From positions 5,025-69,024 of the forward strand of contig JAFTEL010000125.1 in the NCBI GenBank assembly GCA_017453685.1: DNA of 64,000 nt. The letters run 5' to 3'. The notes beneath the pieces were generated by a model that did not search any database, was not told the DNA's origin, and was given only the letters and a program-made list of their open reading frames with translations. The stretch's first letter is position 1, and each line of letters starts with the position of its first letter. Made by a program: the position numbers and the translations under genes. Of this stretch, positions 4,892-58,174 are shown piece by piece. This DNA is from Clostridia bacterium. Lineage in GTDB: Bacteria > Bacillota > Clostridia > Oscillospirales > Acutalibacteraceae.

Positions 4892-6412
4892 ATGGACAAG
4901 ACCATGAAGATCGGCTTCAACACCTTTGACGGCGACGTTCTGGAGGCGCGCCCGTCGTTCACGCTGCCCGCCGAGAGCGGAAAGGGCGTGGACTTTGTGC
5001 TGTGTCACTTCGACCCGCAGCGGTTTCCGCTGGCACAAGCGACCAAAGCGGCCGAACAAGCAGCGGCGATCCTCAAAGAAAAAGGCATCGATTTCATCGC
5101 CAACTTTGAGTTTCAGAACTTTGACCGCGTCAGCAATTACGGCGATTACGACTGGGCGAACCGCCCCGACGGCACGCATCGGCTGAACCTGCCGAAGGAA
5201 TACGTGCAGGCGCTCGCGTCCGCCGGCAACCTGATCGGCGTGATGCACGATGAATTTGAACACGCGATCATCAATCGGAACCTGTCCATCATCCTCGCTA
5301 CCAAGGGCAAAACCAAGCTCTCGGTCTTCCCGCTGAGCGAAAGCAGCGACCCGAAGGCGCAGGCCGATCTGCTCGACCGACAGCTCAAGGAGTACGCCGA
5401 CGACGTCAAAGCCAAGGGCGCGAAGCTCTTCACAGGCGAACACGTTTTCCCCGTGTTTTATCACAAATTCGCCCGCAGCGGCATCATCCCCAACTTCAAA
5501 TCGCAAAAGGAATGTTGGTCGAACCTGCAATTCGCCACGGCCGCCGGCGCAGCGCTGCAATACGGCACGCCGCTGTTCAACTGCGTCGACCTGTGGTTCA
5601 TAAACACGAACCCCGGGCACAGCCCCAACGAAATGTATCACAACCTCGTTTTCGCCTATTATGCAGGCGTCGACCGCGTTTACGTCGAAAGCGCGCACTG
5701 CTTCACCGACGACGAGCCCGCAACGCTCAACGCCTACGGCGAAAAATTCGCGCAGTTTTCCGCAGAATACCGCGGTAAACAGCGCGATTATGATATCGCC
5801 GACTACCGCCCTGAGATCGGCATTATCCGCTTTGACGACAGTTTTTGGGGGCAGGGCGACCCGGTCATGTGGCGCTATATGCTCTTCGGCAATCCGGAGA
5901 TCAAACCGACGAAAGAATCCAAAGAATGGATCAGGGCGTTCCGCCTCATCACCCACGGCGAAAGCGGACGAAACACCTTCTGTTGGGACAAGGTCGCGCC
6001 CTCCATGCTGAAAAAGCACCGCTCCTTCGCCACGATGAATTCCGCGGCAGTCTTTGACGAAAACGCCGACAAATCAAGCCTTTCGTCGCTTAAGCTCTGC
6101 TTCCTGTGCGGCAGCTATATCAGCGAAGAAACGCTGAAAGCCGTCGCCGAACTGGTGCGCGAAAACGGGCTGACCGTTGTCGCGCCCGCGCGGTTTGCCC
6201 CCTCCCCCGCCGAAAAAAAGGCGTTTCGCGTCATCCCCGACGGCAAGGGCAAGTGGATCGTCTGCAACAATCTCGCGGACGGCAGGCTGCAAAAAGAAAT
6301 CGCCCCGTTCCTCGGGAACAAGGGCGAGATCAGACTCACCTTCGCAGGGGATAAAGAGATCAGACTGAAAATCAGCGAAGACGGTGAAGCGTTCACTGTC
6401 ATGCAGGGATAA
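4892..6412 (+). CDS. Uncharacterised cytoplasmic protein (possible TIM-barrel glycosidase-like enzyme)
   Basis: Start trimmed to the ATG at 4892, preceded by AAGGAG with an 8-nt spacer. 506 aa with no signal peptide. Acidic motifs 'MHDEFEH' and 'VYVESAH' are spaced as in beta4/beta7 catalytic Glu of clan GH-A enzymes. This is inference only. Confidence 0.6.
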   Translation: MDKTMKIGFNTFDGDVLEARPSFTLPAESGKGVDFVLCHFDPQRFPLAQATKAAEQAAAILKEKGIDFIANFEFQNFDRVSNYGDYDWANRPDGTHRLNLPKEYVQALASAGNLIGVMHDEFEHAIINRNLSIILATKGKTKLSVFPLSESSDPKAQADLLDRQLKEYADDVKAKGAKLFTGEHVFPVFYHKFARSGIIPNFKSQKECWSNLQFATAAGAALQYGTPLFNCVDLWFINTNPGHSPNEMYHNLVFAYYAGVDRVYVESAHCFTDDEPATLNAYGEKFAQFSAEYRGKQRDYDIADYRPEIGIIRFDDSFWGQGDPVMWRYMLFGNPEIKPTKESKEWIRAFRLITHGESGRNTFCWDKVAPSMLKKHRSFATMNSAAVFDENADKSSLSSLKLCFLCGSYISEETLKAVAELVRENGLTVVAPARFAPSPAEKKAFRVIPDGKGKWIVCNNLADGRLQKEIAPFLGNKGEIRLTFAGDKEIRLKISEDGEAFTVMQG

Positions 6413-6474
6413 AGATTCGCGTTTTCTCTGTCATTTCAGCGTACAAAGAAACTCTGTTCTAATTCAAAAAGCAA

Positions 6475-6521
6475 CGGCATCATTCGGTGATTTCTGCTTT
6501 GCAGGACCGTAAATGATGCCG
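6475..6521. terminator. Bidirectional hairpin terminator between convergent genes
   Basis: CGGCATCATT (6475-6484) pairs with AATGATGCCG (6512-6521), and an inner CGGT/ACCG extends the stem. T-rich runs lie on both sides. Confidence 0.5.
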
Positions 6522-6527
6522 ATTTTA

Positions 6528-7400
6528 TTATTTTCTTTTCTGTGTCTTATCTCTCAGCCAAAAAGCAGCTTTTCTGCCGAAAGCCTGAATCGGATATAAA
6601 ACGCTCAGCGCCGGTGAATCCTTTTTCACCGTCCAATCCGTCAGTTTTGCTTTTCCGGCAGTCACTCCGCCCTTCCACCGGATAGGAACCATCGCCGGCG
6701 TACAATAGGCGCAGAATCTATGAGTATGCGAAAAGCTATCGAGGATCTCGTCTGCAGTAATATCGGAATAAATGTCAAAGCAATCATCCTCGGGATAATC
6801 CGCACCGAACGCCGCGTTCAGCCTGTGCGCACAATAGGCATAGGAACACGGAGCAATTTTTCCGTGGCCGAGCATATGGCAATGGGAAAAGAGGCAGTTC
6901 TTGAAGGATTTCTCGCCCGTTTCCATCGGTCGATCGAGCATTGTTTTAAAGAAAAAGTTGATCGGCGGGCTGAAACGGTATCCGAGCCCGACTTTCTGAA
7001 GCTTCTTTACAATTTCCGCTTTGTGCTTTCTCGTCGGCGGATAGTTTGAAATATCAAGAAAAGCATTGCTGTTCTTCAGCGCAAGAAGCGTCTCATCGCT
7101 GATCTTCGGGATCAGCAGACCGTTGGTCACGATCCTCAGATCCGTTTCGGGAAAAAACTGTCTGGCAAATTCAGCATATGCAGCGATATCGGGATTCAGA
7201 AACGGTTCGCCGCCCATAAGCCGAAGCTTTTGGATATTGGAAAAAAGCTCAGACATTCTTGACAGATCGTTTTTGTATTCGTCAAGCGCGTAGAATTGCT
7301 TTACTCTCGTAAGGTTGCAGCCATCACTGCACGAGCGGCAATTCAGATTGCAGGATTCGCAGATCTCGATTTCCAGATAATCCAGTTCTTTTTTCATCAC
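6528..7400 (-). CDS. Radical SAM enzyme with C-terminal Cys-rich auxiliary-cluster-like region
   Basis: CX3CX2C motif 'CNLNCRSC' near the N-terminus and a SAM-binding-like 'LMGGEPF'. The C-terminal cysteines run 'CLFSHCHMLGHGKIAPCSYAYC...FCAYC'. The ATG at 7397 overlaps the upstream stop (TGATG); the GTG at 7400 is an alternative start. Confidence 0.8.
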   Translation of the reverse strand: MMKKELDYLEIEICESCNLNCRSCSDGCNLTRVKQFYALDEYKNDLSRMSELFSNIQKLRLMGGEPFLNPDIAAYAEFARQFFPETDLRIVTNGLLIPKISDETLLALKNSNAFLDISNYPPTRKHKAEIVKKLQKVGLGYRFSPPINFFFKTMLDRPMETGEKSFKNCLFSHCHMLGHGKIAPCSYAYCAHRLNAAFGADYPEDDCFDIYSDITADEILDSFSHTHRFCAYCTPAMVPIRWKGGVTAGKAKLTDWTVKKDSPALSVLYPIQAFGRKAAFWLRDKTQKRK

Positions 7401-9211
7401 GATTCAACCTTCAGAATGTATCCAGCTTTGCCCTGCGTAACCGAGCAGTTGAAGTGCGTTGTGAAATAGTCAAACGCGTCACTGACGTCCATTTCGGTTC
7501 CGGCAGGACCAATGAAAAAGCTTCGGTTGATGATATAAATATACGAAGGGTTTTCACCAACGTAGTCGTAGTACTGCATATAGGTGTCATTCATCCAGTT
7601 CAAGTACCAGAGTGTGAAGGTCAGAGGCGCTCTGTCCGATGAATAAAGATACCATGAATCATCGGACATAACGGTGTATTTTCCTGACGAGCTCGCTTCG
7701 ATCAAGGCGATATCGTCAAGGACAGCGCCATAGACAGCCTTCTGATCCTCTCTCACCCGGATTCCCTTTAAACCGCCGCGATCAAGCACGACCACTTCCG
7801 TCAATTCGCCCCGTCCCATCACGTAGGCGCCGGGATCGCCGACCGAAAGAATAAAAGCGCTCGCTGCCAGTGAGATTACAGCAACAACGCAGACCAGTGC
7901 CAATGAAACTCCTGCTGCAAGTCTTTTTCTGCGACCTGCTTTTTCACTGCTTTCCTCTTTGCTTTCGCTCGCGGCGGGTGCGATCTCCTTTATCAGATTC
8001 AGAATAATCGGTAAAAACACGACGTTGGAAAGAACGAACCCATAACTGCCGATGTACTCCAGCGCCTCGCTGTTCAGACCGATCAGAATAAGATACAGAA
8101 AACCGGTCAGCCAAACGGCAAGCAGCTTTTTGTCTTTATTATCTGTCAGCACATAGGCGCAGATGCCTAAAAAAGCAGCGGCGTAAGGGATGTGGAGCAA
8201 GGGCAGCATATCGCCTTTGAAAGCCGGAACCGTAAACATCACGGTCAGAAAAACGGCGATTGCAACAGAAAGCGAAAGCCAAAGCAGCTTGCGTCTAGAT
8301 CTGTTTCTGTCCACGAGGATGGCGGCAATGCAAACAAGCGAAGCGACAAAAACAACCGATCCGTAATGATACAGCGCAGCAACCAACGAGCCATATAAGA
8401 ACATCGTTTGGGACGAATACTCTCCGCTGCGGAAGATGTTTCCGATTGCCGCAAGCGTTTTCTGCAGCGAAGCGCGGGAAAGCAGCAAAACAAAAAACGG
8501 AACGGCCGCCGCCAGCACGCCCGCCGTGATCTGCAGAAAACGTTTGGGAAGAAGAAACGCGTTGGTTTTTTTCTTTGCGATAAGCGCAATGATAACGGCG
8601 GCAAAGTATGCGAAATACAGAAGCGATAGCAACGGCTCAGCCAAAACAGCGCAAGCAAACAGGAATCCGCAAAAGATATCTCGAACGGCAGACGGCTTTT
8701 CAGCAAAGAACAGCATCAGCACAATGACTGTCAGCGGGACAAGACTCATTGTATAATAATTCGGAAAAACCAGCGATTCCGGCGCATACAATTCAAACAT
8801 CAGCGCGGACAAGAGCGCAGGTAAGAAGCCGTATCGGCTGATTTTTTTGAATACAAAGCAGGAAACGACCGTATGGCAAAACACGTAAAGAAGCCGAAAA
8901 AAGAGGATGATCCCCTCGCCAGAGCCAAATACTTTCACAAAGAACAGTACCGGCAAACACTGCAAGGCGCCGGAAAGCTGAGCAACGTGCCATTCATTGA
9001 TGAAGAAAGCGTCGCCCTTCAAAAAACGGTAAGGGATCGTCAGGTAAAACGATTCATCCGGCGTGGCAATACCGAACAAAGCCCGGTGAATCAACAACCC
9101 CGCTGCGGCAATAATGATTGCCCAGCCGATGATCATCTGCTTTCCTCCGGGCTTGGATGTCAGCTTCTCAATGCAGTTTTTCTTTTCTTTTGTTTTTTCC
9201 ATTTTCTTCAA
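7397..9211 (-). CDS. GT-C fold membrane glycosyltransferase (ArnT/PMT-like) with C-terminal extracytoplasmic domain
   Basis: 604 aa, about 12 predicted TM helices. The first loop carries an acidic motif 'TPDESFYL', then comes a soluble tail of about 150 aa. The start is uncertain: TTG at 9211 overlapping the upstream stop, or ATG at 9202. Confidence 0.6.
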   Translation of the reverse strand: MKKMEKTKEKKNCIEKLTSKPGGKQMIIGWAIIIAAAGLLIHRALFGIATPDESFYLTIPYRFLKGDAFFINEWHVAQLSGALQCLPVLFFVKVFGSGEGIILFFRLLYVFCHTVVSCFVFKKISRYGFLPALLSALMFELYAPESLVFPNYYTMSLVPLTVIVLMLFFAEKPSAVRDIFCGFLFACAVLAEPLLSLLYFAYFAAVIIALIAKKKTNAFLLPKRFLQITAGVLAAAVPFFVLLLSRASLQKTLAAIGNIFRSGEYSSQTMFLYGSLVAALYHYGSVVFVASLVCIAAILVDRNRSRRKLLWLSLSVAIAVFLTVMFTVPAFKGDMLPLLHIPYAAAFLGICAYVLTDNKDKKLLAVWLTGFLYLILIGLNSEALEYIGSYGFVLSNVVFLPIILNLIKEIAPAASESKEESSEKAGRRKRLAAGVSLALVCVVAVISLAASAFILSVGDPGAYVMGRGELTEVVVLDRGGLKGIRVREDQKAVYGAVLDDIALIEASSSGKYTVMSDDSWYLYSSDRAPLTFTLWYLNWMNDTYMQYYDYVGENPSYIYIINRSFFIGPAGTEMDVSDAFDYFTTHFNCSVTQGKAGYILKVES

Positions 9212-10299
9212 AAACGATTGATCGCGTCGATCACGTAAGTTATCTCGTCGTCTGTCATTCCGATATACATCGGAAGTGATAAAATAGATTTATGAAGATT
9301 GGCGGAAAAATCGGATAGGGCCGCGTCCTGCCCATCCTGCGCATACAGGCTTGAAAGAAACGGCGGATTCTTATAATGGATCTGTGTCTGTATTCCGCTG
9401 GTTTCAAGGTAATCTTTCAGCTTATCCCGCTCTTCGCATCGTATCACAAACTGGTGAAATGTATGTTTGGAAAACGCCGCCGTTTTCGGCAAAAGGATCG
9501 TAGGATTATTGATTCCGGACAAATACCGGGACGCGATTCTGCGCCTTTCTGCCAGCATATCATCCAGATACTTGAATTTGGCGTTCAGGATCGCCGCCTG
9601 AAGCTCGTCTATTCTGGAATTGACGCCAACCGCTTCATATTCACCTTTTTCATTGATGCCGTAAAACCGCATTGCCCTGAGTCTTCGCGCCATTTCATCG
9701 TCATCAGTCAGGATCGCACCCCCGTCGCCGAAGGCGCCGAGGTTCTTGGTCGGGTAGAACGAAAAACAGGAAACGTCGCCGAAGCTGCCAACTGGCTTCC
9801 CCTTGTATTCCGCGCCGAAAGCCCGAGCACAGTCTTCCACGACGACCAGGTCGTGCCTTTCTGCAACGGCAAGGATCTCATCCATATCCGCCGCCTGCCC
9901 GTAAAGGTGCACAACGAGAATCGCTCTTGTTTTCGGCGTGATTTGCTTTTCAAGCTGCGCTGGATCAATGCTATAGTACTCGTTGACGTCAACGGCAATC
10001 GGCGCCGCACCGACGTTAGCGACAGCCGCGTAATCGGCAACAAACGTGTTGCACGGAACGAGGACTTCATCACCCCGACCGATTCCGAGATACCGAAGCG
10101 TCAAATACAGTGCGTCTGTGCAATTTTTGACGGAAACACAATTGTTTTTTCCGATCGAATCGGACAGTTTTTTTTCAAATTCTTTCGTTTCCGCCCCATA
10201 AAGACAAACGCCGCTCTTCAAAACGGCTGAAAGCTTAGACGAAGCTTCGGCTTCGTACCATTCAATTTCTCTGTCCAGACGACGACATTGTATTTCCAT
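9208..10299 (-). CDS. DegT/DnrJ/EryC1/StrS-family PLP-dependent nucleotide-sugar aminotransferase
   Basis: Motifs 'FEKKLSDSIG', 'CTDALYLTLRYLGIGRGDEVLVPCNTFVA' and 'SFYPTKNLGAFGDGGAILTDD' (lysine-bearing PLP motif). Confidence 0.85.
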   Translation of the reverse strand: MEIQCRRLDREIEWYEAEASSKLSAVLKSGVCLYGAETKEFEKKLSDSIGKNNCVSVKNCTDALYLTLRYLGIGRGDEVLVPCNTFVADYAAVANVGAAPIAVDVNEYYSIDPAQLEKQITPKTRAILVVHLYGQAADMDEILAVAERHDLVVVEDCARAFGAEYKGKPVGSFGDVSCFSFYPTKNLGAFGDGGAILTDDDEMARRLRAMRFYGINEKGEYEAVGVNSRIDELQAAILNAKFKYLDDMLAERRRIASRYLSGINNPTILLPKTAAFSKHTFHQFVIRCEERDKLKDYLETSGIQTQIHYKNPPFLSSLYAQDGQDAALSDFSANLHKSILSLPMYIGMTDDEITYVIDAINRF

Positions 10300-10300
10300 A

Positions 10301-10702
10301 TTATTGCTTCAAAAAAACCGTCTTGTCAAAAATGATCTCATCGGGGTCATAGTGCATGTCTGACACCGCTAAAATGATGCTACCCTTTTTGAAATTCGAC
10401 ATTTTCCTCCATATCATTTTCGGTATATACAGCCCTTCGTTTTTTTCAGTCAGGCAGTAGCGGGAAACTGAATTATTCCTGTCCGTCAGTTCAATATCAC
10501 ACGCGCCGGAGAGGCAAATCAACACCTCAGCCGAAAGGAAATTGGCGTGATTCGCCCGCACGGAGTCTTCATCAAGGCCATAAATATAGAACACCCGTTT
10601 GATCTCAAAAGGAACGTCCTTTGCTCCCTCAATCGGTGTGAGCACCCCTCGGTCGTCGATATTCTCTTTCAATCGAATAAGATACGGCTTATCGTTTTCC
10701 AT
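10301..10702 (-). CDS. FdtA/WxcM-like cupin (dTDP-4-keto-6-deoxyhexose 3,4-ketoisomerase family)
   Basis: 133 aa. 'DDRGVLTPIE...FEIKRVFYIYGL...VRANHANF...LICLSGACDIEL' aligns to the FdtA 'RGGHAHK' region. Confidence 0.75.
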   Translation of the reverse strand: MENDKPYLIRLKENIDDRGVLTPIEGAKDVPFEIKRVFYIYGLDEDSVRANHANFLSAEVLICLSGACDIELTDRNNSVSRYCLTEKNEGLYIPKMIWRKMSNFKKGSIILAVSDMHYDPDEIIFDKTVFLKQ

Positions 10703-11483
10703 GGCTTTTCCCTCGTATATACTGAACTGTGGTCAACAACACCGCCGCAGAAAGAGCTGCCGTCTCAAAAAACACGGTGTATTCTTTCATTGCGGTCATG
10801 GCAAGTTTCGTCAGGGAAAGATAATTATACCCCGAATGCCCAGCAATTCGCGCTTTACGCGCGTAATAGACCTTGTCGGACGTTAAACCGAGAAGCGGGA
10901 TCTCGGCCTGCAGGAAGGGGCTTTCTCCGCATCGTGCCTGAAGCAGCATAACCGCATTTCTTGTAACAAGCCGATACGACGAGGAATTAGAGACGATCTT
11001 TGATCCGAATGCCCTCATCAGGAAATAAAAGCTTCCTGCACAAATGCGGTAAAAAGAAGAGTCCTCGCTCCGATCCGATCGGCAGCCGTAAACGACCTCG
11101 GCGCCCTTGCTGTGTTTATCAAGCATTTCGTCGATCCGCGCCAGATCGTCCTGAAGATCACAGTCGATCGTAACGATGATATCCGCGTGTTCCGCCGCCG
11201 CTTTCATTCCGGCCATATAGGCATGCATTTCACCCGCGTTGGTTTTAAAGCAAAGAGCCTCGATTCTTTTTGGATACGTTTCCTGCAGCCGCAGGATCGT
11301 TTCCCACGTTTTGTCAGCCGACCCATCATCAACGAGCAAAAGCCTGCTGTCAGTGGAAACTTTTCCATCGCGAACAAGGCGGTCGAGCGTCTCAACCATT
11401 ACCGGAACGCTGTATTCAATCGTATCCGCATCATTGTAACACGGAGATACGATCCATAGAGTTTCAAGCGTTTTCGTTTTCAT
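10689..11483 (-). CDS. GT2 glycosyltransferase, polyprenyl-phosphate sugar synthase type (ArnC/GtrB/DPM1-like)
   Basis: Motifs 'IVSPCYND', 'LLLVDDGSADKT' and 'IVTIDCDLQDD', with a C-terminal hydrophobic helix. Overlaps the downstream gene by 14 nt. Confidence 0.85.
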   Translation of the reverse strand: MKTKTLETLWIVSPCYNDADTIEYSVPVMVETLDRLVRDGKVSTDSRLLLVDDGSADKTWETILRLQETYPKRIEALCFKTNAGEMHAYMAGMKAAAEHADIIVTIDCDLQDDLARIDEMLDKHSKGAEVVYGCRSDRSEDSSFYRICAGSFYFLMRAFGSKIVSNSSSYRLVTRNAVMLLQARCGESPFLQAEIPLLGLTSDKVYYARKARIAGHSGYNYLSLTKLAMTAMKEYTVFFETAALSAAVLLTTVQYIRGKSHGKR

Positions 11484-11573
11484 AATTCAAGACCGTTATT
11501 GTTATATCTGTTTCAAGCACTTGCGAATCTGCTGCTATCTGTTATTATTTAATGATCAATTGTATTATAGCAT

Positions 11574-11601
11574 ATTTTTCATTGAATGCAATAGTGAGTC
11601 T
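11574..11601 (-). promoter_or_regulatory. Sigma-70-type promoter of the five-gene glycan islet operon
   Basis: Minus strand reads TTGCAT (11601-11596), 16-nt spacer, extended -10 TGcTATAAT (-10 at 11579-11574). It lies about 90 nt upstream of the ATG at 11483. Confidence 0.5.
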
Positions 11602-11945
11602 TGCTGCTTGAAATTCGACCGCTGACAGAGGTTCTGCGCGCCATGGGACACGACATCCCGCCATCATGCAAAAGCACTACCCCATTTCGCCAAGACGATG
11701 CTGAAGAAATTAGAAGCTGTTCTCAATCTTGCGAATAAGGAGATAGAATTTTTATTAGTCACTTTGTTGTCACCAAGAAAATGATATCTACACATGACGC
11801 CTGAGGTATACCGTGCACATACGACAATATATATTGTGAAATATATAATCCACTCACCCGCCGTCGAGGCGGCGGATATCACCGCCCGCAGGGCAATTTC
11901 ACCTGCACAGCAGATTTCATCCACCCGCAAGGGTGGATTTCATTG

Positions 11946-11977
11946 AAAAAAGCACTTGCCGAAGCAAGTGCTTTTTT
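11946..11977. terminator. Bidirectional rho-independent terminator
   Basis: AAAAA-AGCACTTGC-cgaa-GCAAGTGCT-TTTTT. Perfect 9-bp stem flanked by an A-tract and a T-tract, immediately 3' of the tRNA. Confidence 0.75.
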
Positions 11978-11979
11978 CT

Positions 11980-12066
11980 TGGTGCCGGTGACCGGGGTCG
12001 AACCGGTACGCTGTTGCCAGCGAGGGATTTTAAGTCCCTTGCGTCTGCCTATTCCGCCACACCGGC
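11980..12066 (-). tRNA. tRNA-Leu (anticodon UAA), type II with long variable arm, CCA encoded
   Basis: Hand-folded. Acceptor GCCGGTG/CACCGGC, anticodon stem AGGGA/TCCCT with loop CTTAAAA, variable arm CGCTGGCAACAGCG, T arm ACCGG-TTCGACC-CCGGT, discriminator A plus CCA. 87 nt. Confidence 0.95.
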
Positions 12067-12090
12067 AAAGTCAGCGGAAACTGCTTCATC

Positions 12091-12119
12091 AATATAGCAC
12101 GGAATTCCGTCAAAGTCAA
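12091..12119 (-). promoter_or_regulatory. Promoter for tRNA-Leu
   Basis: Minus strand reads TTGACT (12119-12114), 17-nt spacer, extended -10 TGcTATATT (-10 at 12096-12091). The -35 overlaps the stop of the upstream lipoprotein gene. Confidence 0.5.
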
Positions 12120-13126
12120 ACATTAATATCGATATCCTTGCATTGAAAATCGCGCCAGGCCTTGTCGTTGGCGAGCTTGCCGTTATCCGCAAACACCTTT
12201 TTCGCGGCGGGATCGTTTTTGAGGAAAGCGTCAAACCAGGCCAGCGCATAGCCGGACACTTTTTTCGGCTGCGTCATGCACGTTGTGTGAACGGCGCCCC
12301 TGAGCGACGCATAAGCCGCCGCGCCGGCGACCGCTTTATAAGAAGGCTTGCACCACTGTGCCGCGACCACGATCAGATCGCAGGAACCGGCGATGAACAG
12401 GCTGGGCGTTTTCAGACCGCTCGCCTCTTCCACGCTGGACGCGCCCGCGATCGACACGACGCAGCGGATCCTTTCATTCGCCTGCGCGGCGTTGACGCAG
12501 CTGCGCCCACCCTGCGAGTGACCGCACACGCCGAGCGCGGCGGTATCCACCTTGCGATAAAACGGGCTCGCAGGATCGCCGTTTCGGCGGAGCATATCAT
12601 TGAGCGAGTCGATCTGCGTTTTCCCGTCGCCGGACATCACGTCGGCGTCCGCGATCACGATATATCCTCCGGCGGCAAGCTCCTTGAGCAGCGCGGTATA
12701 CGTAAAGGTCGGGCAGCCCGTTCCGTTCGCCCACGAGATCACCGGCCAGCGTTTGGACGACGTTCTCAGCGACGACGGGAAGACGATCGTCTTGTCGCCG
12801 TCCCTGATCGTTTCGATCTCGCCGATCTCGAGCGGCTCGGTGGTCGCTTCTTTCTTTGTCTGCGTCTGCGTGACGACCGCCTTGGTCGTTCTTACTGTTT
12901 GCGCTGTCGTTTGCTCCGTCGGAACCGTCGTCTGCTCCGGCAGCGCTGCGGTTTCTTCTGCCAGCGGCGCTGTCGTCGTTTCGGGCTCGGTGACATACGC
13001 GGTCGTCACCTCGGCCTGCGCCGCGACGGTCTCCTCATTTTTCGAGCCGCAGGAACAAAAGCCGAAGAGCGCTGCCGCGGCGAGCAGCAGCGCTAAAAGC
13101 TTCTTTCCGTTTTTGGATTTGTTCAT
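12116..13126 (-). CDS. Lipoprotein alpha/beta-hydrolase (cutinase/lipase/dienelactone-hydrolase-like esterase)
   Basis: Lipobox 'LFGFCSC', a T/E/P/Q-rich linker, then 'ISWANGTG' and the nucleophile elbow 'GHSQGG'. Confidence 0.8.
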   Translation of the reverse strand: MNKSKNGKKLLALLLAAAALFGFCSCGSKNEETVAAQAEVTTAYVTEPETTTAPLAEETAALPEQTTVPTEQTTAQTVRTTKAVVTQTQTKKEATTEPLEIGEIETIRDGDKTIVFPSSLRTSSKRWPVISWANGTGCPTFTYTALLKELAAGGYIVIADADVMSGDGKTQIDSLNDMLRRNGDPASPFYRKVDTAALGVCGHSQGGRSCVNAAQANERIRCVVSIAGASSVEEASGLKTPSLFIAGSCDLIVVAAQWCKPSYKAVAGAAAYASLRGAVHTTCMTQPKKVSGYALAWFDAFLKNDPAAKKVFADNGKLANDKAWRDFQCKDIDINV

Positions 13127-13151
13127 CTTTTCGTCCCCTGCCCTGCAGCGG

Positions 13152-14555
13152 TTATTTCAGCAAAAGCGTTGCATCGGCGTCGGGGATGCCGTCGTTATGC
13201 AGCAGCGGCAGCAGGATCGCACTGATGCTTTCAATCCCCTTCGCCTGCAGCTTTTCGGCAAACGGCTTGGACAGCCGGTCGAGCTTGGCAAACAGCGCCG
13301 AAGCCACGCGGTATTCCACGCTATCCTTGGGCAGGTCGGCGTCGCCGCGGTAGAGGTTCGCGGCCAGCGACACCGCGAACGGCACCACAAGCCGATCCCA
13401 CTGCGGTTTCATTTCCTCCTTCGGCACGCCGTTTTGGCGGCGCGTCCATTTCCAGACCTTGCCGAACGTCAGGCGGTTGAGCCAATGCGCGAGCGGGTGG
13501 ATCACGGGCTTGAGCTTGCGCGCCTTGGGTTCGCGCAGGCTGAAGCTGTTGGCGAGGCGGATGAATTCTTCATAATCTTGATCCGCCGCGTCGAGAATAT
13601 CCGTCACGACGCCGAGAAACTGCTTTTCGGTGAACTGCGGCAGCGTTAAACCGCCGAGATCAAGCCCCGGGACGGTTTCGACGCGGATCGTTTTGATATC
13701 GATCGAGCCGCCGTCGGGGTCGAAGCGCACGCGGCGGTAGTTCGGCGGGAAACCGACCGTCGCCGAGGTGGACACGTCATAGAACGGGTTGCCCGCTTCG
13801 GAGTCGATGCGCGTGATATTGTGGATGTGGCTGTGACCGGTGAACATGACGGGCACGCCCATATCGGCAAACGCCTTGGCGCGGTTTTCACCGTCCTCCA
13901 GCATATCGCCGGACGCGATGAGCTTGTAAAGCGGCGACGGAGACAGAATGGGATGGTGCGTCATGGCGATAATAAACTGCCCCTTTTCGCGCGCCTGTTT
14001 GGTCTGCGCCCGGATCCAGTCGAAGCACTCCTCCGTGAAGCCGGCGTGGTCGTAGCCCTTATCGTCGTTGAGCGCGAGCAGGAGATATTCCGGCGTCAGC
14101 TCCGCCGCGTAGCACATCGTCGGCTCGTGAACGCTGATCGCCTTGCCCATGCCGAATTCGCGGTAGAATTCGCGCAGATCGTCCCGCACGAAAGCGGGCA
14201 CGTCCACCCTGTTGTTATTCTTATCGAAGCCGTAGGACACGCCCTCGCCGCGGTAATCGTGCGTCGCCGTGGTCACGAACACGCGCTTGCCGCGCTTTTC
14301 CAGTTCGCGCAGCAATTCGCGCATCTCCTCGTGAGAGGTCACTTCGCCGTTGTTGGTCAGATCGCCGCTGATGAGCACGATCTCGGGCATATCGGGCGCG
14401 CAGAGGTCGTCAAACACCTTGCGCAGAATTTCCTCACTGCCCAGACGGTATAACTGCTCCCGCTCCGGCGGGAAGGCGTAAGGATCGCCGTCGACCCAGT
14501 TTCGTTTGGAATAGTAATGCGTATCGGTCAGGACAAACAGATCAAGTGGCTGCAT
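13152..14555 (-). CDS. Calcineurin-like metallophosphoesterase
   Basis: Motifs 'LTDTHY', 'ISGDLTNNG', 'TATHDY', 'MTHHP' and 'TGHSHIH'. 467 aa with a C-terminal helical extension. Confidence 0.85.
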   Translation of the reverse strand: MQPLDLFVLTDTHYYSKRNWVDGDPYAFPPEREQLYRLGSEEILRKVFDDLCAPDMPEIVLISGDLTNNGEVTSHEEMRELLRELEKRGKRVFVTTATHDYRGEGVSYGFDKNNNRVDVPAFVRDDLREFYREFGMGKAISVHEPTMCYAAELTPEYLLLALNDDKGYDHAGFTEECFDWIRAQTKQAREKGQFIIAMTHHPILSPSPLYKLIASGDMLEDGENRAKAFADMGVPVMFTGHSHIHNITRIDSEAGNPFYDVSTSATVGFPPNYRRVRFDPDGGSIDIKTIRVETVPGLDLGGLTLPQFTEKQFLGVVTDILDAADQDYEEFIRLANSFSLREPKARKLKPVIHPLAHWLNRLTFGKVWKWTRRQNGVPKEEMKPQWDRLVVPFAVSLAANLYRGDADLPKDSVEYRVASALFAKLDRLSKPFAEKLQAKGIESISAILLPLLHNDGIPDADATLLLK

Positions 14556-15657
14556 CCAAAGCCATCCTTTCCGCCGAGTAATTCATCGGAACCTTCTTTT
14601 TGAAGAGCATATAGTCATATTCGGGTTTCCACTGGTCGCCCGTCTCCACCTGATCCTTGAATTGATCGTGGTCAAGCGCGGTGTTGATCTCGGCAAGACC
14701 TTTGATCTCGCCGCTGTCTTTATACACCGAATCCCAGAACGCGTGGTGACCGATGGAGGTCACGGACGCGGGCAGGTAGATATACGTGAGCGACTGATCG
14801 TAGCTGAACGCGTCGGAGCCGATCGTCTCCAGCCCTTCGGGCAGCGAAGCATAAATCTCATCGCCGCGGAACGAATAGATATTGCGCAGCGCGGAGCAGC
14901 GGAAGAACGCCATGGTCTCGATCGACTTGACGCCTTCAGGCATCGTCACATCAGCCAGCGCGGCGTAGTTGAACGCCAGCATGCCGATCGTCTCGGTCTC
15001 GGCGGGCAGACGGTAGGTCATGATATCGGCGATATACTGCTCGGTGTAATCCTCGCCCCACCATTCCGGCTCTTCGGCGTAGCCCTTGACTTCGCGCAGA
15101 TAGGCGTCATGGTCGATCGGGTAGCAGATGACCGTTTTGAGGTCTTTGGTGAACAGCACGCCGTCAATGTCGCAATAGGCGGGATTCGCCGGATCGACGT
15201 GGATATTGCGCAGCGCCCAGCAGCTGTAAAACGATTTGCCGTCGATCTGCGTGATATCCTTGCCGAGGGTCACTTCCAACAGCTTTTCGTCGCAGTTGAG
15301 GAAATATTCGTGCAGCACGGTCACGGGCTTGGTCGGGTCGCCGTCCACATAGTCGACCGTCAGCTGCGTCACTTCGCCGGGGTTGCTGTATTTGACCAGT
15401 TCATAGGTGCCGTCGTCCAGCGCCTTGTATTCATAGGTGTCCTTATGCACGGCGCGCACGGAGAAATAGATCGACAGCCCGATAGCGACCAACAGGGTGA
15501 GAACGACGCCGAGCCTTTTGCCGAGAGAATGCTCGCGTCCCTTTTCGATATGCGGCTCCTGCAGCCCTTCGATCTGATAGGTCCAGATCTCGTTTTCGGG
15601 GATATCCAGCTTGACGGGCTCTTTGGCCGCCGTTTTCTCTATCTTACCCTTTTTCAT
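14542..15657 (-). CDS. Membrane-anchored BspA-type leucine-rich-repeat (LRR_5) protein
   Basis: N-terminal TM 'LGVVLTLLVAIGLSIYF'. Repeats of the form 'I..IG..AF..C..L..I.LP..V..I'. Overlaps both neighbouring genes, by 4 nt and 14 nt. Confidence 0.75.
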   Translation of the reverse strand: MKKGKIEKTAAKEPVKLDIPENEIWTYQIEGLQEPHIEKGREHSLGKRLGVVLTLLVAIGLSIYFSVRAVHKDTYEYKALDDGTYELVKYSNPGEVTQLTVDYVDGDPTKPVTVLHEYFLNCDEKLLEVTLGKDITQIDGKSFYSCWALRNIHVDPANPAYCDIDGVLFTKDLKTVICYPIDHDAYLREVKGYAEEPEWWGEDYTEQYIADIMTYRLPAETETIGMLAFNYAALADVTMPEGVKSIETMAFFRCSALRNIYSFRGDEIYASLPEGLETIGSDAFSYDQSLTYIYLPASVTSIGHHAFWDSVYKDSGEIKGLAEINTALDHDQFKDQVETGDQWKPEYDYMLFKKKVPMNYSAERMALDAAT

Positions 15658-17432
15658 TGCGGTACCGCCTCCTGTTCCATGTCGCTTTGAGCTTGTTCGG
15701 CGTCAGACTCCAATCCGAGCGTGCCGCCCGTCACTTCTTCACGCCGCTGCAGCACCTGCATGACCTTGCTCTGCTTGTCGTCGTCGTAATCCCAGAACAG
15801 GAAGGGAATGGTCATCAGAATATAGCCGACGATGTCGATAATAATGGGAATGACGATGATCTTGATGCGCGAGGCGTCGACAAACAGCACGTCCCAGTTG
15901 CTGTTGAAGCCGTATTTCAGCAGCATCAGCGGAATGATGAGACCGACGAAGGAAACGATGGGACCCGTGAACCAGCCGAACACGCCGGAAAAGTTTTCCA
16001 GCCGCTCGCCGGACAGATACATCTGATAGTCGTTGATACGAACCTCCATATCGTAGGAGGCGGTGGCGGGCACGGTTTTGCACATTTCCAGGAAGAACAG
16101 CGTGACGACGCAGATCGTGCCGCACAAAACCAGCTTGTCGCCGAGGAAGAGCAGCGCCAGAACAATGATCGTATTGCCGATCGCGCGCGAGAGCTGATAG
16201 AAGATTTGCAGCTGTCTGTAGGTAAAGCGCTTGAGGAAATAAGGCGCGAGCAGGTCGGGCGGCGTGCCGGCGAACGACACGAGCGCGACGATCAGGCTGT
16301 AAAGCAGACCGCTCAGGCGGAAGGTATAGAGATACAGGATCGTGGCAAACGGAAGCATACCGTTGCCCAAAGCGTCGAGCAGGTCGACGATCGTTTTGAT
16401 CCACTTGTATTTGTTTCGCATGACGCCGAACATGCCGTCCCAGAAATTGATCTGCACCTTTTTCTCAAGCGGCGGCTGCGGGATGCGTTCGCGCACGCGG
16501 CTGGCAAACACCATGGTCAGACCCGCCGCCACCACAAACGTAACAGGGATGACGAAACGGAACACGTTGATATCCGCCCACTCATAGCGCAGCGCGCCGA
16601 TGATGACCGGCAGAATGATCGCGAGGATCGAATAGAAGATGTGGGAAAGCTTGATCGGATAGGAGCGCACGAAAATGCGTTCGCGGACGTTGGGGCTGAT
16701 GTTGCGGGTGCAGATCTCCAGCCGGTTGTCAAAGCCGTAGAGATTGAAGACGGCAAACATCAGGTTGGCGACCCAGACGCGGGTGACAACGTCGGGAATA
16801 TTGTAGAACGGGAGCCAGCCGATGAGTATGGTCATGATGCACTTGGGGATGCAGTCGCTGTAAAGCATGTACTTATAGCGCCCGTACTTCGGGATGAGCT
16901 TTTTGCGCCAGAAAATACCGCGCGCGCCCGCCCAGCCGTTCCAGAGCAGATGGGTGCCGAGGATTTTGATCGCCGAGGCGAAGCTGATCCCTTCCAGCGA
17001 ATTCATATAGGTCACAAAGCGGTTCGCCGGATCGAAAAACGCCGCCACGTTGCCGAAAATGAGAAAGAGTCCGACGGCAATGAGCGCGAAATACAGCCCG
17101 TAGAGCTTCCGCTCGGTCTTTTTGACGAGCATGCCCAGATTGTCCGCGACCAGCCAGCCGATCAGCGTCCAGATATAATTGAGGGGCATGTTGATGATGT
17201 TGATGACGGAAAACGTCAGATACGGCAGCTTGTAGTGGTACATCATCAAGTAACACGCCGCGCCGAAGTAGATGTATTCCAGCACCTTCGAGCCGGTGTA
17301 GTTGCTGCCGACGGCGATGAAAATATCCTTGTATTCCTTGTAAGGAACGTATTTCCCCTCCGCCGGTGTTTTCCAATGGGTCTTGATCTCGGTGAATAAG
17401 GCTTTCACCTTGCTGCCCGATTCTTTTGCCAC
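15654..17432 (-). CDS. Divergent GPH-like polytopic membrane transporter
   Basis: 592 aa with at least 12 hydrophobic helices. Degenerate GPH motifs 'KLIPKYGRYKYM' and 'NDYQMYLSGERLENFSG'. Acidic C-terminal tail. Confidence 0.6.
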   Translation of the reverse strand: MAKESGSKVKALFTEIKTHWKTPAEGKYVPYKEYKDIFIAVGSNYTGSKVLEYIYFGAACYLMMYHYKLPYLTFSVINIINMPLNYIWTLIGWLVADNLGMLVKKTERKLYGLYFALIAVGLFLIFGNVAAFFDPANRFVTYMNSLEGISFASAIKILGTHLLWNGWAGARGIFWRKKLIPKYGRYKYMLYSDCIPKCIMTILIGWLPFYNIPDVVTRVWVANLMFAVFNLYGFDNRLEICTRNISPNVRERIFVRSYPIKLSHIFYSILAIILPVIIGALRYEWADINVFRFVIPVTFVVAAGLTMVFASRVRERIPQPPLEKKVQINFWDGMFGVMRNKYKWIKTIVDLLDALGNGMLPFATILYLYTFRLSGLLYSLIVALVSFAGTPPDLLAPYFLKRFTYRQLQIFYQLSRAIGNTIIVLALLFLGDKLVLCGTICVVTLFFLEMCKTVPATASYDMEVRINDYQMYLSGERLENFSGVFGWFTGPIVSFVGLIIPLMLLKYGFNSNWDVLFVDASRIKIIVIPIIIDIVGYILMTIPFLFWDYDDDKQSKVMQVLQRREEVTGGTLGLESDAEQAQSDMEQEAVPQ

Positions 17433-19431: not shown

Positions 19432-20814
19432 TCAGAGGAGATCGCCGGTTCTGAGTTTTCTGATCCAGTCGAGGATCGTTGTTTTGATCGCCAGCAGTTT
19501 TTCGCTGCGCATGGCCGAGCGCTGCGCGCGGGTGCCCGCCGTATTGATCAGGCCGAAGGTCTTCAGGCACGGTTCATCGATGAACCCGCCCGCAAAAACG
19601 GCGCAGTAATCGGCAAAGTTGTTCTTTTGGAACTTGCCGCCGTCGGTGCGGAGCACCTCGCCGAATTTCTGCATAAGGGTCTCGTAGCTGTCGTTTTCAT
19701 AATCAATCTTTTCGATATCCGAGGAGCCGTAGAGGAACCACGGAGAAGCGTCCGCGTCGGGACCTGCGCCCTTATACGTCCACGTCGTCCAGCTCAGATC
19801 ATTCTGATTGAAAATCGAAAGCAGATAACCGAAGGTGGTCAAGCCTCTCGGATAGAACTCACCGATATAAAACGGCGCGTTATAGTTGGCGTTTTTGATC
19901 TCGTTGACCTTGCGCAGGATGGTGGGGTTGGTCACGTCGTAAAGATGCTCCTGATACACGATATTTTCCCAGCCGTAGACGTCGGGCGACGCAATGGCGG
20001 ACGGGTCCCAGATTGCCTCCATGCAGATGATGTGATCGGGATCGACCGCTCTGACAGCCTCATAGATATCGTTGCTCAGATCCCAGAAGGTCTGCTGGAA
20101 GCTGCCGTCTCTGGTGATATTGGTGCCCAGCGGCTCGTTCATCAGATCATACATCGCGATGGTGCTCTCGCCCGCGTAATGCTTGGCGAGCTCGACCCAG
20201 AAATCAATGACGACTTCCCTGTAGCGCGCACCCTGCTCGGTGTCGTCAAACAGCGACATGGATTTGGACTGACCGCAGTGGTCGTAATCATTCTGATAGC
20301 CGGGCAGACCGTGCAGGTCGATGATGAGGTAAAGCCCGTATTTCTTGCACAGAGAAACGGCGGTATCGAGTTCGCTGAAATCAATGCTGCCATCCGCCTT
20401 GCGGTACCATGTGCCGTTGTCGTCCGATTGGAAATTGCGGTACCAGATCGGCAGACGGATGACGTTCATGCCCAAATCGGCAACGTTTTGATAATCGATC
20501 TCCGTGATCCAGTTGCTGCGGTAGGTCTTGAACAGCTCGCGGGTCGCTTCGCTGCCGAACCTGCTTTCCAGCGTTTTATAAACAGGATCGAGCCCGGCGG
20601 GATTGGTGTAAGGGCAGAACCAGTCTTCCATGATGCCCCAGCCGCCGAAATTGGTGCCGCGCAGCAAAATCTCTTCCCCGTTGGCGTCCATGATCCTTTT
20701 GCCCTCGGTGTGGAGCATCGGCAGCGCCGCGCCGTCGACCGCGAACGCGGGCAAGACGGAACACACGGCAAAAACGAGCACGAAGAGAAGCGAAACAAAT
20801 CTTTTCCTATTCAT
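19432..20814 (-). CDS. Secreted GH5-family glycoside hydrolase (cellulase-superfamily beta-glycanase)
   Basis: Signal peptide 'FVLVFAVCSVLPAFA'. Motifs 'GTNFGGW', 'NVIRLPI', 'IIDLHG' and 'YDLMNEP' (NEP acid/base). Confidence 0.85.
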   Translation of the reverse strand: MNRKRFVSLLFVLVFAVCSVLPAFAVDGAALPMLHTEGKRIMDANGEEILLRGTNFGGWGIMEDWFCPYTNPAGLDPVYKTLESRFGSEATRELFKTYRSNWITEIDYQNVADLGMNVIRLPIWYRNFQSDDNGTWYRKADGSIDFSELDTAVSLCKKYGLYLIIDLHGLPGYQNDYDHCGQSKSMSLFDDTEQGARYREVVIDFWVELAKHYAGESTIAMYDLMNEPLGTNITRDGSFQQTFWDLSNDIYEAVRAVDPDHIICMEAIWDPSAIASPDVYGWENIVYQEHLYDVTNPTILRKVNEIKNANYNAPFYIGEFYPRGLTTFGYLLSIFNQNDLSWTTWTYKGAGPDADASPWFLYGSSDIEKIDYENDSYETLMQKFGEVLRTDGGKFQKNNFADYCAVFAGGFIDEPCLKTFGLINTAGTRAQRSAMRSEKLLAIKTTILDWIRKLRTGDLL

Positions 20815-35722: not shown

Positions 35723-35751
35723 ATTATAGCACACATTGTTTGGAATTGCAA
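35723..35751 (-). promoter_or_regulatory. Near-consensus promoter of the GPH transporter gene
   Basis: Minus strand reads TTGCAA (35751-35746), 17-nt spacer, extended -10 TGcTATAAT (-10 at 35728-35723). Confidence 0.6.
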
Positions 35752-48613: not shown

Positions 48614-48685
48614 GGCACAATACGGTTGTTTTTTACAGAATTAGTGTTATAATATGATGAAATAACCTTTTAAGGAGGAAAGATC

Positions 48686-50611: not shown

Positions 50612-51376
50612 ATGCTGACGAATATTTTTGACACACACGCGCACTACGACGACGAGGATTTTGACGCCGACCGCTTTGAAACGCTCGACGAAGTGTTCCG
50701 AAACGGCGTGTGCGGCGTCATCAACTGCGGCTGCACCGTGGCGAGCAGCAAGGCGTCTCTGGCGCTGGCACATCGGATCGACGGCGTTTATGCCGCCGTG
50801 GGCATCCACCCGCAAAACGCAAGTGAAGAAACCCAAGCGTCGTTTGACGTCATCCGTCAGCTGAGCCAAGACGAAAAGGCGGTCGCCATCGGAGAGATCG
50901 GGCTGGATTATCATTATGACTACACCCCGAAGGAGATGCAGCTCGACTTTTTTGAAAAGCAGCTCATCCTCGCCAACGAGCTTGATCTGCCGGTGATCGT
51001 GCATGACCGCGAGGCACACGAGGACTGCGTGAACCTGATCATGAAGCATAAGCCGCGCGGCGTGATGCACTGCTTTTCCGGCAGTTTGGAAACCGCGAAG
51101 CAGCTGATCGGCATCGGGTTTTATATCGGCTTAGGCGGCAGCGTGACCTTCAAAAACGCCCGCAAGCCCGCCGAAGTCGCGGCAGGCATTGATCTTGACC
51201 GTATTCTGCTGGAGACCGACTGCCCGTATATGGCGCCCGTTCCCCTGCGCGGCAGGCGCAACCGTTCCGACTACATCGCCTACGTAGCGGAAAGAATCGC
51301 CGCGCTGCGCGGGATCGACCCGCAGGCGGTCGTGGACGCTGCCCGGGACAACACCAAACGCCTGTTCGGCGTATAA
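50612..51376 (+). CDS. TatD-family metal-dependent hydrolase (DNase)
   Basis: 'FDTHAHY', 'GEIGLDYHY', 'PVIVHDREAH', 'GVMHCFSG' and 'ETDCPYM'. Its start abuts the metG stop. Confidence 0.9.
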   Translation: MLTNIFDTHAHYDDEDFDADRFETLDEVFRNGVCGVINCGCTVASSKASLALAHRIDGVYAAVGIHPQNASEETQASFDVIRQLSQDEKAVAIGEIGLDYHYDYTPKEMQLDFFEKQLILANELDLPVIVHDREAHEDCVNLIMKHKPRGVMHCFSGSLETAKQLIGIGFYIGLGGSVTFKNARKPAEVAAGIDLDRILLETDCPYMAPVPLRGRRNRSDYIAYVAERIAALRGIDPQAVVDAARDNTKRLFGV

Positions 51377-58093: not shown

Positions 58094-58174
58094 AATACCA
58101 GCCTCCATTATAGCAGTTTTTTTTACTCTCTTCAACTAAAACCGTAAAAATTATAAAAATTACAAGTCTTATAA

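Follow-up and report, generated by a model that had tools for sequence, protein, structure and literature searches.

The locus considered here raises the question of what a compact group of five genes at positions 6528–11483 contributes to its host. The stretch analysed, referred to below as the window, is the whole 64 kb taken from contig JAFTEL010000125.1 of an uncultured Clostridia bacterium from the rumen, and the five genes, referred to as the islet, encode a family 2 glycosyltransferase (GT2), a cupin, a DegT-family aminotransferase, a 604-aa membrane protein and a radical S-adenosylmethionine (SAM) enzyme. The order of the five genes, the limits of the unit, the families or folds assigned to the proteins and the way such genes recur together in other genomes point to a Gtr/Arn-like cassette for extracytoplasmic glycosylation, which tailors a lipid-linked monosaccharide donor and transfers the sugar; we regard this as probable, while leaving appreciable room for other readings. 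A twitch radical SAM enzyme of the sugar type is linked to GtrB-like synthases and to glycosyltransferases of the GT-C fold both here and in dozens of related loci of rumen Clostridia, where B12-binding radical SAM enzymes are often found as well. The analysis also exposed a large GT-C family of at least 3570 clusters at 50% identity, which carries no Pfam, NCBIfam or functional annotation.

Organization of the islet

All five open reading frames (ORFs) are intact and lie on the minus strand. Taken in gene order, they overlap by 14 nt, leave a gap of 1 nt, overlap by 4 nt and finally overlap by 1 or 4 nt; the arrangement given in a preliminary description of the sequence was reproduced in full. 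The islet would form one transcription unit. Its promoter is placed at 11564–11591 on the minus strand, with TTGCAT as the −35 element (11591–11586), a 16-nt spacer and TGcTATAAT as the extended −10 element (11572–11564), and the GT2 start codon lies 81 nt downstream of this copy. The promoter had been called near-consensus, which holds for the perfect extended −10 element and not for the −35 element, which is weak and agrees with TTGACA at three of six positions. The extended −10 sequence TGNTATAAT is rare, with four copies in the window against 0.43 expected. The only three other perfect extended −10 sites (TGnTATAAT) in the window, at 35723–35731 (minus strand), 48645–48653 (plus strand) and 58107–58115 (minus strand), are probably strong promoters of other units. 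At the far end of the islet, 3' of the radical SAM stop codon, a hairpin with a 14-bp interrupted stem followed by the U-run UUGCUUUUU (6521–6466, minus strand) reads as a strong intrinsic terminator, a feature absent from the preliminary description; its folding free energy is −21.2 kcal/mol (z −3.3), and one of 200 shuffled sequences folds equally well.

Glycosyltransferases

The GT2 gene (10689–11483, minus strand) encodes a protein of 264 aa with a PF00535 domain (5e-15) and the DxD-containing motif IDCDLQDD. Its top NCBIfam models are PgfS and ArnC, both matched well under their cut-offs (58.6 bits against 529 for ArnC), and its nearest solved structures are all polyprenyl-phosphate sugar synthases, namely GtrB (1e-18), ArnC (2e-12) and DPMS (1e-6), with the alignment extending through the juxtamembrane helices. 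The earlier assignment to the polyprenyl-phosphate sugar synthase type (GtrB/ArnC/PgfS-like) is therefore upheld, and the protein groups with these synthases, apart from the processive and the soluble GT2 enzymes. The C-terminus carries a single hydrophobic helix, as does that of a 264-aa ortholog in locus L001 (53% identity; loci from other genomes are cited by L numbers). Because this ortholog ends likewise, the 264-aa single-helix form is, as judged from sequence, a real variant and not a truncation.

The 604-aa protein (7397–9211, minus strand; 604 aa from a TTG start, 601 aa according to gene callers) has no significant Pfam or NCBIfam match, including none to PMT or PMT_2, and a search against the sequences of solved structures in the PDB returned nothing meaningful. 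An AlphaFold2 (AF2) model built from a 19-sequence alignment reached a predicted local distance difference test score (pLDDT) of 85 and a predicted template-modelling score (pTM) of 0.89. When the model was searched with Foldseek, a probability of about 1 was obtained solely for the GT-C enzymes ArnT, STT3, AftA, PglB, Pmt4, AftB, ALG3 and EmbC, with ArnT as the top match. The model thus supports the GT-C-type membrane transferase with an extracytoplasmic tail that had been proposed. O-antigen polymerase, ligase and transporter were rejected as identities, since only GT-C enzymes scored high and transporters reached a Foldseek probability of at most 0.2. A divergent YfhO, a DUF6056 protein and a co-occurring 450-aa membrane protein ('u450') were likewise rejected by hhalign, in which the family profile matched genuine YfhO with a probability of 4.8%.

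In the family alignment, G47, D52, F55, Y56, R62, G66, D67, E73 and W74 are invariant and E53 is nearly so, and the resulting motif, PDESFY...R...GD...EW, sits directly after the first transmembrane helix. GT-C enzymes carry a catalytic acidic loop at the position just after this helix. The protein has a lysine-rich N-terminus and a cytoplasmic GRRKR loop before its last transmembrane helix; on this basis the N-terminus is placed in the cytoplasm and the C-terminal alpha/beta domain, some 140 aa long, on the outside.

The family had appeared rare in a word-seeded search, which gave 19 matches. That impression was overturned by an exhaustive profile search, which recovered 3570 representative clusters (50% identity) at E ≤ 1e-3 and 1379 at E ≤ 1e-30. 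The scanned members lack Pfam domains except for a recurrent N-terminal fusion to Acyl_transf_3, a surface-glycan O-acyltransferase domain. On sequence comparison, the 604-aa protein appears to represent a large unnamed family separate from YfhO, DUF6056 and the Gtr enzymes.

Aminosugar genes

Between the two transferase genes lie the cupin and aminotransferase genes, and both assignments of the preliminary description hold. The cupin (10301–10702, minus strand; 133 aa, PF05523 8e-35) resembles FdtA/WlaRA-like dTDP-4-keto-6-deoxyhexose 3,4-ketoisomerases, and its nearest solved structure is WlaRA (1.6e-25), which was deposited as a TDP-fucose 3,4-ketoisomerase. It keeps the first histidine of the motif that reads H-x-H in QdtA and WlaRB, and has HAN at this position, as in WlaRA.

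The DegT-family pyridoxal phosphate (PLP) aminotransferase (9208–10299, minus strand; 363 aa, PF01041 9e-110) matches the solved structures of QdtB (7e-98), WbpE (5e-70), ArnB (1e-47) and WecE-type enzymes (5e-37). Further top matches are 2oga and 5u1z, which we take to be the C3 aminotransferases DesV and WlaRG, and the Lys-bearing segment YPTKNLG presumably represents the PLP-lysine motif. Against the NCBIfam ArnB model the protein scores 208 bits, with a cut-off of 631. By these scores it is closest to the C3 (QdtB/FdtB/DesV/WlaRG) type, while the C4 enzymes, ArnB and WecE-type, score far lower.

Radical SAM enzyme

The last gene of the islet (6528–7400, minus strand) encodes a radical SAM protein (PF04055) of 290 aa from a GTG start, or 289 aa from an ATG at 7397, and its earlier assignment holds. 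The CX3CX2C motif (C16/C20/C23 in the 289-aa numbering) and a twitch auxiliary-cluster motif, C168-x10-G179-x4-C184...C229-x2-C232, are invariant across 37 family members. Its AF2 model (pLDDT 95) matches SpeY (7wzv) over the full length as the top Foldseek hit, with TM-scores of 0.77/0.75, a root-mean-square deviation of 3.4 over 292 columns and an E-value of 8e-18, at 20% sequence identity; the next matches are MoaA (0.49) and BtrN (0.40). The PDB entry of SpeY bears the title 'a Twitch Radical SAM Dehydrogenase'. The islet protein is accordingly described as a SpeY-like twitch enzyme, for which the abstraction of hydrogen from a sugar carbinol is a predicted function, and its genomic context in sugar and glycosylation loci is consistent with such chemistry. 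A C-terminal amphipathic tail of 32–39 residues (hydrophobic moment, muH, 0.50) is present in all aligned members of at least 42% identity and is cut to 3–5 residues in most members more distant than that; the clade with the tail is also the one with linkage to GT2 and GT-C genes.

Recurrence in other genomes

The gene neighbourhoods of radical SAM homologs were scanned in 79 genome loci, mostly from metagenome-assembled genomes (MAGs) of Clostridia from goat, sheep and cattle gut, with annotation by custom profiles; a close clade of at least 40% identity comprised 24 loci and a distant clade 55. Within 10 kb, 19 of the 24 close-clade loci have a GT2 gene and/or a gene for GT-C or YfhO. By gene type, a GT2 gene was found in 15, the new GT-C in 9, YfhO in 3, DegT in 10, FdtA in 3 and a B12-type radical SAM gene in 9. 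No GT-C or YfhO gene was found nearby in the distant clade (0/55), in which GT2 was seen in 21 loci, a 4,6-dehydratase in 13 and DegT in 10. The radical SAM gene adjoins genuine YfhO (Pfam 2e-133) in L012, L015 and L017, and DUF6056 membrane proteins share the locus with it in L029 and L030, where in L030 they are directly adjacent. The enzyme had been described as an 'extra' component of the islet; this wording has to be given up, since the gene recurs beside GT2, DegT, GT-C or YfhO genes in rumen Clostridia.

The GT-C gene shows a similar pattern of association. All six of the loci with the closest GT-C homologs have a short GT2 gene and/or a radical SAM gene beside GT-C, the latter being either of the 290-aa twitch type or of a B12-binding type of about 640 aa. 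These six loci differ in their sugar-nucleotide modules, which range from FdtA with or without DegT, through an NTP-transferase with a 4,6-dehydratase, to an FKP-like kinase/pyrophosphorylase. In rumen Clostridia MAGs, GT-C paralogs also form tandem arrays, with eight members in L021, five in L018 and four each in L020 and L004, and those of L021 are interleaved with two SpeY-like radical SAM genes. B12-binding-type radical SAM paralogs (490–650 aa; PF02310 plus PF04055) are clustered in several genomes, with about 11 ORFs in L031, seven in L001 and further clusters in L027 and L029; in these four loci they are mixed with short GT2 genes and lie beside the SpeY-like radical SAM gene.

A metagenome scan from the GT-C side matched mostly 27%-identical homologs from human-gut metagenomes. 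A GtrB-like GT2 gene accompanies GT-C in 59 of 80 such loci, in all cases on the same strand and without a radical SAM gene. Because of this, GT2 plus GT-C is the family-wide core, to which rumen Clostridia specifically and repeatedly add the SpeY-like radical SAM enzyme. GT2 lies directly upstream of GT-C in L092, in which a 949-aa Acyl_transf_3–GT-C fusion (8921–11770, plus strand) follows the GtrB-like GT2 gene and precedes a phosphoglucomutase gene; dozens of near-identical human-gut loci among L091–L161 share this layout. The 90%-identity cluster of this fusion contains 13,043 sequences, which in this analysis came mostly from metagenomes of the human gut. Its sole annotation in public sources is 'surface polysaccharide O-acyltransferase-like enzyme', and the GT-C half is unannotated there.

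Several related loci also encode very large secreted proteins that are rich in threonine (12–15% Thr) and have no Pfam domain, such as L014 3858–9029, L012 17190–20858, L020 14303–19171 and L019 7198–8388. Large Thr-rich proteins are encoded directly downstream of GT2 in L019, L024 and L028. These secreted proteins are candidate glycosylation substrates.

Proposed pathway and alternative explanations

In the pathway that we propose, the identity and stereochemistry of the sugar, the substrate, reaction and stage of the radical SAM enzyme and the acceptor are put forward as predictions. RmlA and RmlB, encoded outside the window, would supply dTDP-4-keto-6-deoxy-D-glucose. By analogy with the closest characterised relatives, the WlaRA/FdtA-like cupin would isomerise it to the 3-keto sugar, and the QdtB/FdtB-like aminotransferase would transaminate C3 to give a dTDP-3-amino-3,6-dideoxyhexose of the Fuc3N or Qui3N type. 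The radical SAM enzyme might then abstract hydrogen from a carbinol carbon of the sugar, resulting in an epimerised or oxidised position; this is the least certain step, and its substrate may be the nucleotide sugar or the lipid-linked sugar at the membrane. The GtrB-like GT2 would move the sugar onto undecaprenyl phosphate, a flippase encoded elsewhere would carry the lipid-linked sugar over the membrane, and the 604-aa GT-C protein, via its acidic first outer loop (D52/E53), would hand the sugar to an envelope acceptor. A glycopolymer of the wall or lipoteichoic type and a Thr-rich surface protein are the candidate acceptors. Among the genes of the window are those for GerA and SpoIID-type sporulation proteins and for several hydrolases of plant polysaccharides, which fits a host that is a Gram-positive, spore-forming fibre degrader of the rumen. 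Since GerA and SpoIID indicate a Gram-positive spore former, lipid A is presumably not the acceptor.

A number of observations weigh against this pathway. The preliminary description had noted that the islet lacks an acyltransferase, a flippase and RmlA/RmlB, and this is correct; RmlA/B and flippase candidates are absent from the whole window too. The window yielded neither RmlA-type nucleotidyltransferase nor 4,6-dehydratase homologs, and no GtrA-like, MATE, SMR or Wzx-like flippase, the islet ORFs all being otherwise assigned. In addition, no ORF in the window of at least 90 and fewer than 470 aa has three or more predicted transmembrane helices; the polytopic proteins of the window with a Pfam match are MFS_2 transporters, GerA and FtsK, and one, at 48647–51070, has no Pfam match. 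Further GT-C, YfhO or radical SAM paralogs were likewise absent from the window. No N-acyltransferase (FdtC/QdtC) is encoded in the islet, which has no room for more genes. The pathway therefore needs genes elsewhere. The unacetylated, positively charged sugar predicted in the preliminary description may be the product, although an acyltransferase encoded elsewhere or the radical SAM enzyme might modify it. Moreover, in the Arn system, the GalN/GlcN systems of Francisella and Bordetella and that of mycobacterial PpgS, the sugar is N-acylated when loaded and loses the acyl group afterwards, and the N-acylating and deacylating enzymes of Arn/PpgS-type systems are not encoded in the islet. GtrB and ArnC have two transmembrane helices, and GT2 relatives of about 314 aa extend further at the C-terminus, where they have a second hydrophobic stretch, while the islet GT2 has one helix. 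The resemblance of the GT-C model to ArnT is moderate (TM-score 0.46–0.50), and the cupin has HAN and not HAH, although WlaRA, annotated as a functional isomerase, also has HAN. As to mobility, no integrase and no att repeats were found, and the search for direct repeats between the 3' end of the tRNA-Leu gene that borders the islet and the far border gave only short low-identity chance repeats.

The role of the radical SAM enzyme can be read in further ways. In the boldest of these, it acts at the membrane on the polyprenyl-phosphate-linked sugar, as an oxygen-independent counterpart of DprE1/DprE2 or ArnD, giving an epimerised or oxidised lipid-linked donor, and the unrecognised GT-C family, with arrays of up to eight paralogs in rumen Clostridia, uses this donor to build or decorate a glycopolymer or Thr-rich surface proteins. 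We advance this tentatively; if true, radical SAM chemistry, including that of the co-located B12-type enzymes, would be an integral, undescribed layer of three-component glycosylation in anaerobes. The main rival to the proposed pathway, conceivable if unlikely, is that the enzyme is an anaerobic hydroxyl dehydrogenase that turns a sugar hydroxyl into a ketone for DegT to aminate, following the logic of BtrN/BtrS, on a nucleotide- or lipid-linked sugar, and that together with FdtA it leads to a diamino-dideoxy sugar. SpeY, the top structural match, is a dehydrogenase and BtrN is also among the matches, and such a reaction would be the only aminosugar route in cassettes without FdtA and 4,6-dehydratase; the radical SAM gene adjoins DegT and GT2 with no FdtA within 10 kb in L019, L022, L024, L027, L028, L029 and L034. 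The DegT protein also resembles WbpE (5e-70), which aminates a 3-keto sugar made by a dehydrogenase (the WbpB/WbpE pairing). However, FdtA already gives a keto substrate in the islet, making a second oxidation unnecessary, and no DegT gene lies within 10 kb of the radical SAM gene in L012, L015, L017, L018, L021 and L023. To our knowledge, no DegT-family enzyme acts on lipid-linked sugars.

The missing acyltransferase invites a more conventional account, in which ordinary N-acylated Fuc3NAc or Qui3NAc is transferred, the acyltransferase is encoded elsewhere, and the islet is a Gtr system for a side branch, comparable to Xanthomonas wxc region 3, with a peripheral radical SAM enzyme. The FdtA/FdtB pathway is normally finished by FdtC or QdtC, and known polyprenyl-phosphate aminosugar synthases take N-acylated donors, both of which speak for this account, as does the loss of the FucNAc side branch when wxcK or wxcN is mutated in Xanthomonas (PMC4878081). 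We nevertheless consider it distinctly improbable: besides the lack of an acyltransferase in the islet, none stood out in the closest ortholog cassettes (L001, L005, L011 and L016), in which the recurrent neighbouring families have other assignments, and the radical SAM gene is conserved beside the GT-C gene, with which it is translationally coupled. Less probable still is a system akin to peptides made by ribosomes and modified after translation (RiPPs), in which the substrate of the radical SAM enzyme is a peptide that GT2 and GT-C glycosylate. Many twitch/SPASM radical SAM enzymes are peptide maturases, weak NCBIfam matches lie in that direction, and some related loci (L001, L031) have many B12-type radical SAM genes; but the operon has no gene for a precursor peptide, a protease or an exporter, the sugar-modifying SpeY matches with a TM-score of 0.77 against at most 0.42 for peptide maturases, and distant radical SAM members also occur in sugar loci (DegT in 10, 4,6-dehydratase in 13 and GT2 in 21 of the 55 loci).

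Three-component glycosylation shapes serotype, phage susceptibility and resistance to antimicrobial peptides, and we know of no radical chemistry in the enzymology of these systems. The word 'radical' does not occur in a paper on three-component systems (PMC11127046), and a full-text literature search returned no paper pairing 'radical SAM' with GT-C, GtrB or polyprenyl glycosylation, which is not proof of absence. If the donor-tailoring and transfer cassette is what the islet encodes, it would bring a candidate new glycosyltransferase family together with a new class of donor-tailoring step, and would open a way into the surface glycans, as yet unexplored, of gut anaerobes that degrade fibre.

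Composition, neighbouring features and origin

With the window, and not the whole genome, as the baseline, the stretch 6413–11980 has a GC content of 0.478 against 0.572 for the remainder. The GC content of the islet is the lowest among all 5-kb windows of the 64 kb (mean 0.564, sd 0.025), and its tetranucleotide distance is the largest (0.35 against a mean of 0.15, sd 0.05). The AT-richer stretch at about 6.4–11.9 kb, previously noticed by eye, is thus borne out within the window. Low GC as a general trait of such cassettes was rejected, since in other genomes the difference between cassette and flanks is only 0–4 points.

A tRNA-Leu(UAA) gene (11980–12066, minus strand; ARAGORN, Rfam tRNA 55.5 bits) lies outside the operon and abuts the upstream edge of the low-GC stretch. 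Such a landmark is typical of islands, and the tRNA gene is a possible integration landmark. It has its own promoter-like site at 12119–12091 and a terminator-like hairpin. Between it and the islet promoter lies a Gut-1 RNA motif (RF01706; 11871–11945, minus strand; 71.8 bits against a gathering score of 50), of which a second copy was seen in L022 at 16861–16946 (minus strand), some 6 kb away from that locus's radical SAM gene. Next to the cassette, a gene at 12116–13126 (minus strand) encodes a lipoprotein (lipobox ...LFGFCSC) that combines a PETase-like hydrolase domain (PF12740, 3e-19) with a linker of about 90 aa rich in Thr, Glu and Ala. This Thr-rich linker is a plausible O-glycosylation acceptor.

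Four further assemblies carry an identical islet; they were discounted as independent occurrences, being the same strain at 99.6–99.9% DNA identity. In L009 (2–2824), an assembly of this strain with indels and 99.6% DNA identity, a single 940-aa ORF is called across the DegT and GT-C region; this is probably an assembly frameshift and not a real fusion. The preliminary description had suggested looking for the islet in related strains. It is absent at the junction with the flanking gene 4892–6412 in three relatives with a 76–84% identical copy of that gene, which have different genes there. In L034, a related Ruminococcaceae MAG with orthologs of the flanks at 13152–14555 (72%), 15654–17432 (82%) and 19432–20814 (68%), the equivalent site (9596–14712) holds a different cassette of a 427-aa radical SAM enzyme, a 313-aa GT2, a 276-aa ORF, DegT and GDPD, whose proteins are at most 47% identical to those of the window, with no GT-C within 10 kb. 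The islet was probably acquired horizontally. The different cassette at the same site in L034, the lack of the islet at that junction in three relatives and its low GC agree with one cassette having replaced another at a surface-glycan site that varies, and with a recent arrival from a donor of lower GC. A phage origin was rejected, as no GT-C relative was found in IMG/VR, and a plasmid origin likewise, the only matches being to DegT, short and about 67% identical, on plasmids that are unrelated.

Comparison with known systems

The islet has close parallels in the GtrA/GtrB/GtrV and CsbB/YfhO/GtcA systems, which act on O-antigen, on lipoteichoic and wall teichoic acids and in streptococcal Pgf protein glycosylation. 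As in the islet, a GtrB-like GT2 works with a GT-C enzyme that acts outside, and the genes form a compact, variable, horizontally exchanged cassette; some sister loci pair the same radical SAM gene with genuine YfhO. The islet differs in that its GT-C belongs to an unrelated sequence family (hhalign probability below 5%) with no Pfam match, and in that no GtrA/GtcA gene is present, a flippase usually completing the three-component system. In addition, the donor sugar would come from FdtA/FdtB-type enzymes of the islet itself, and a radical SAM enzyme is conserved alongside.

The ArnB/ArnC/ArnT pathway, which modifies lipid A with L-Ara4N, follows the same logic, from an aminotransferase to a GT2 that loads undecaprenyl phosphate to a GT-C enzyme that transfers the aminosugar to the envelope. 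'ArnBCT-like', the term of the preliminary description, remains apt for this logic and fails as a statement of orthology: the aminotransferase is of the C3 type and not an ArnB ortholog (1e-47; 208 bits against 631), the NCBIfam ArnB and ArnC models are matched below their cut-offs, and the likeness to ArnT is structural, with a TM-score of about 0.5 and a GT-C from a separate family. The ArnA/ArnD formyl-protection cycle is absent from the islet.

The nearest characterised relatives of the isomerase and C3 aminotransferase are those of FdtA/B/C, QdtA/B/C and Campylobacter jejuni WlaRA/WlaRB/WlaRG, which serve dTDP-Fuc3NAc and dTDP-Qui3NAc synthesis. In Xanthomonas wxc region 3, wxcK and the small membrane protein WxcN add a FucNAc side branch (PMC4878081). 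The 3-amino-3,6-dideoxyhexose chemistry had been thought unfamiliar in three-component systems; this needs qualifying, as the lipid-routed addition has a genetic precedent in that region in N-acetylated form (PMC4878081). Unlike the Fdt, Qdt, Wla and wxc systems, the islet has no N-acetyltransferase, has a GtrB-like GT2 and a GT-C enzyme instead of a Leloir glycosyltransferase, and contains a radical SAM enzyme.

For the radical SAM enzyme itself, SpeY provides the parallel, with the full-length fold match (0.77/0.75) and the same CX3CX2C and twitch auxiliary-cluster cysteine pattern. Beside SpeY, HygY and BtrN are twitch radical SAM dehydrogenases and epimerases of sugars or cyclitols in aminoglycoside pathways. 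The islet enzyme is set apart from SpeY by its 20% identity, its extra C-terminal amphipathic helix and its occurrence in envelope glycosylation loci of anaerobic gut Firmicutes and not in antibiotic clusters.

A further comparison is offered by the mycobacterial decaprenyl-phosphate arabinose system (DprE1/E2 with Emb/Aft) and the GT136 pentofuranose three-component systems (PMC11127046), in which the lipid-linked donor is tailored after or around loading and several GT-C paralogs are used. The GT-C arrays of the sister loci, with up to eight paralogs, recall the multiple Emb/Aft enzymes of mycobacteria. By contrast with DprE1/E2, the tailoring enzyme would be a radical SAM protein and not an FAD/NADH pair, and the sugar would be a hexose derivative and not a pentofuranose; tailoring at the lipid-linked stage is a proposal made here. 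Taken across these systems, the working principle of the islet is the known one of Gtr, CsbB-YfhO and ArnC-ArnT, and what is new is the unnamed GT-C family and its recurrent SpeY-like radical SAM partner.

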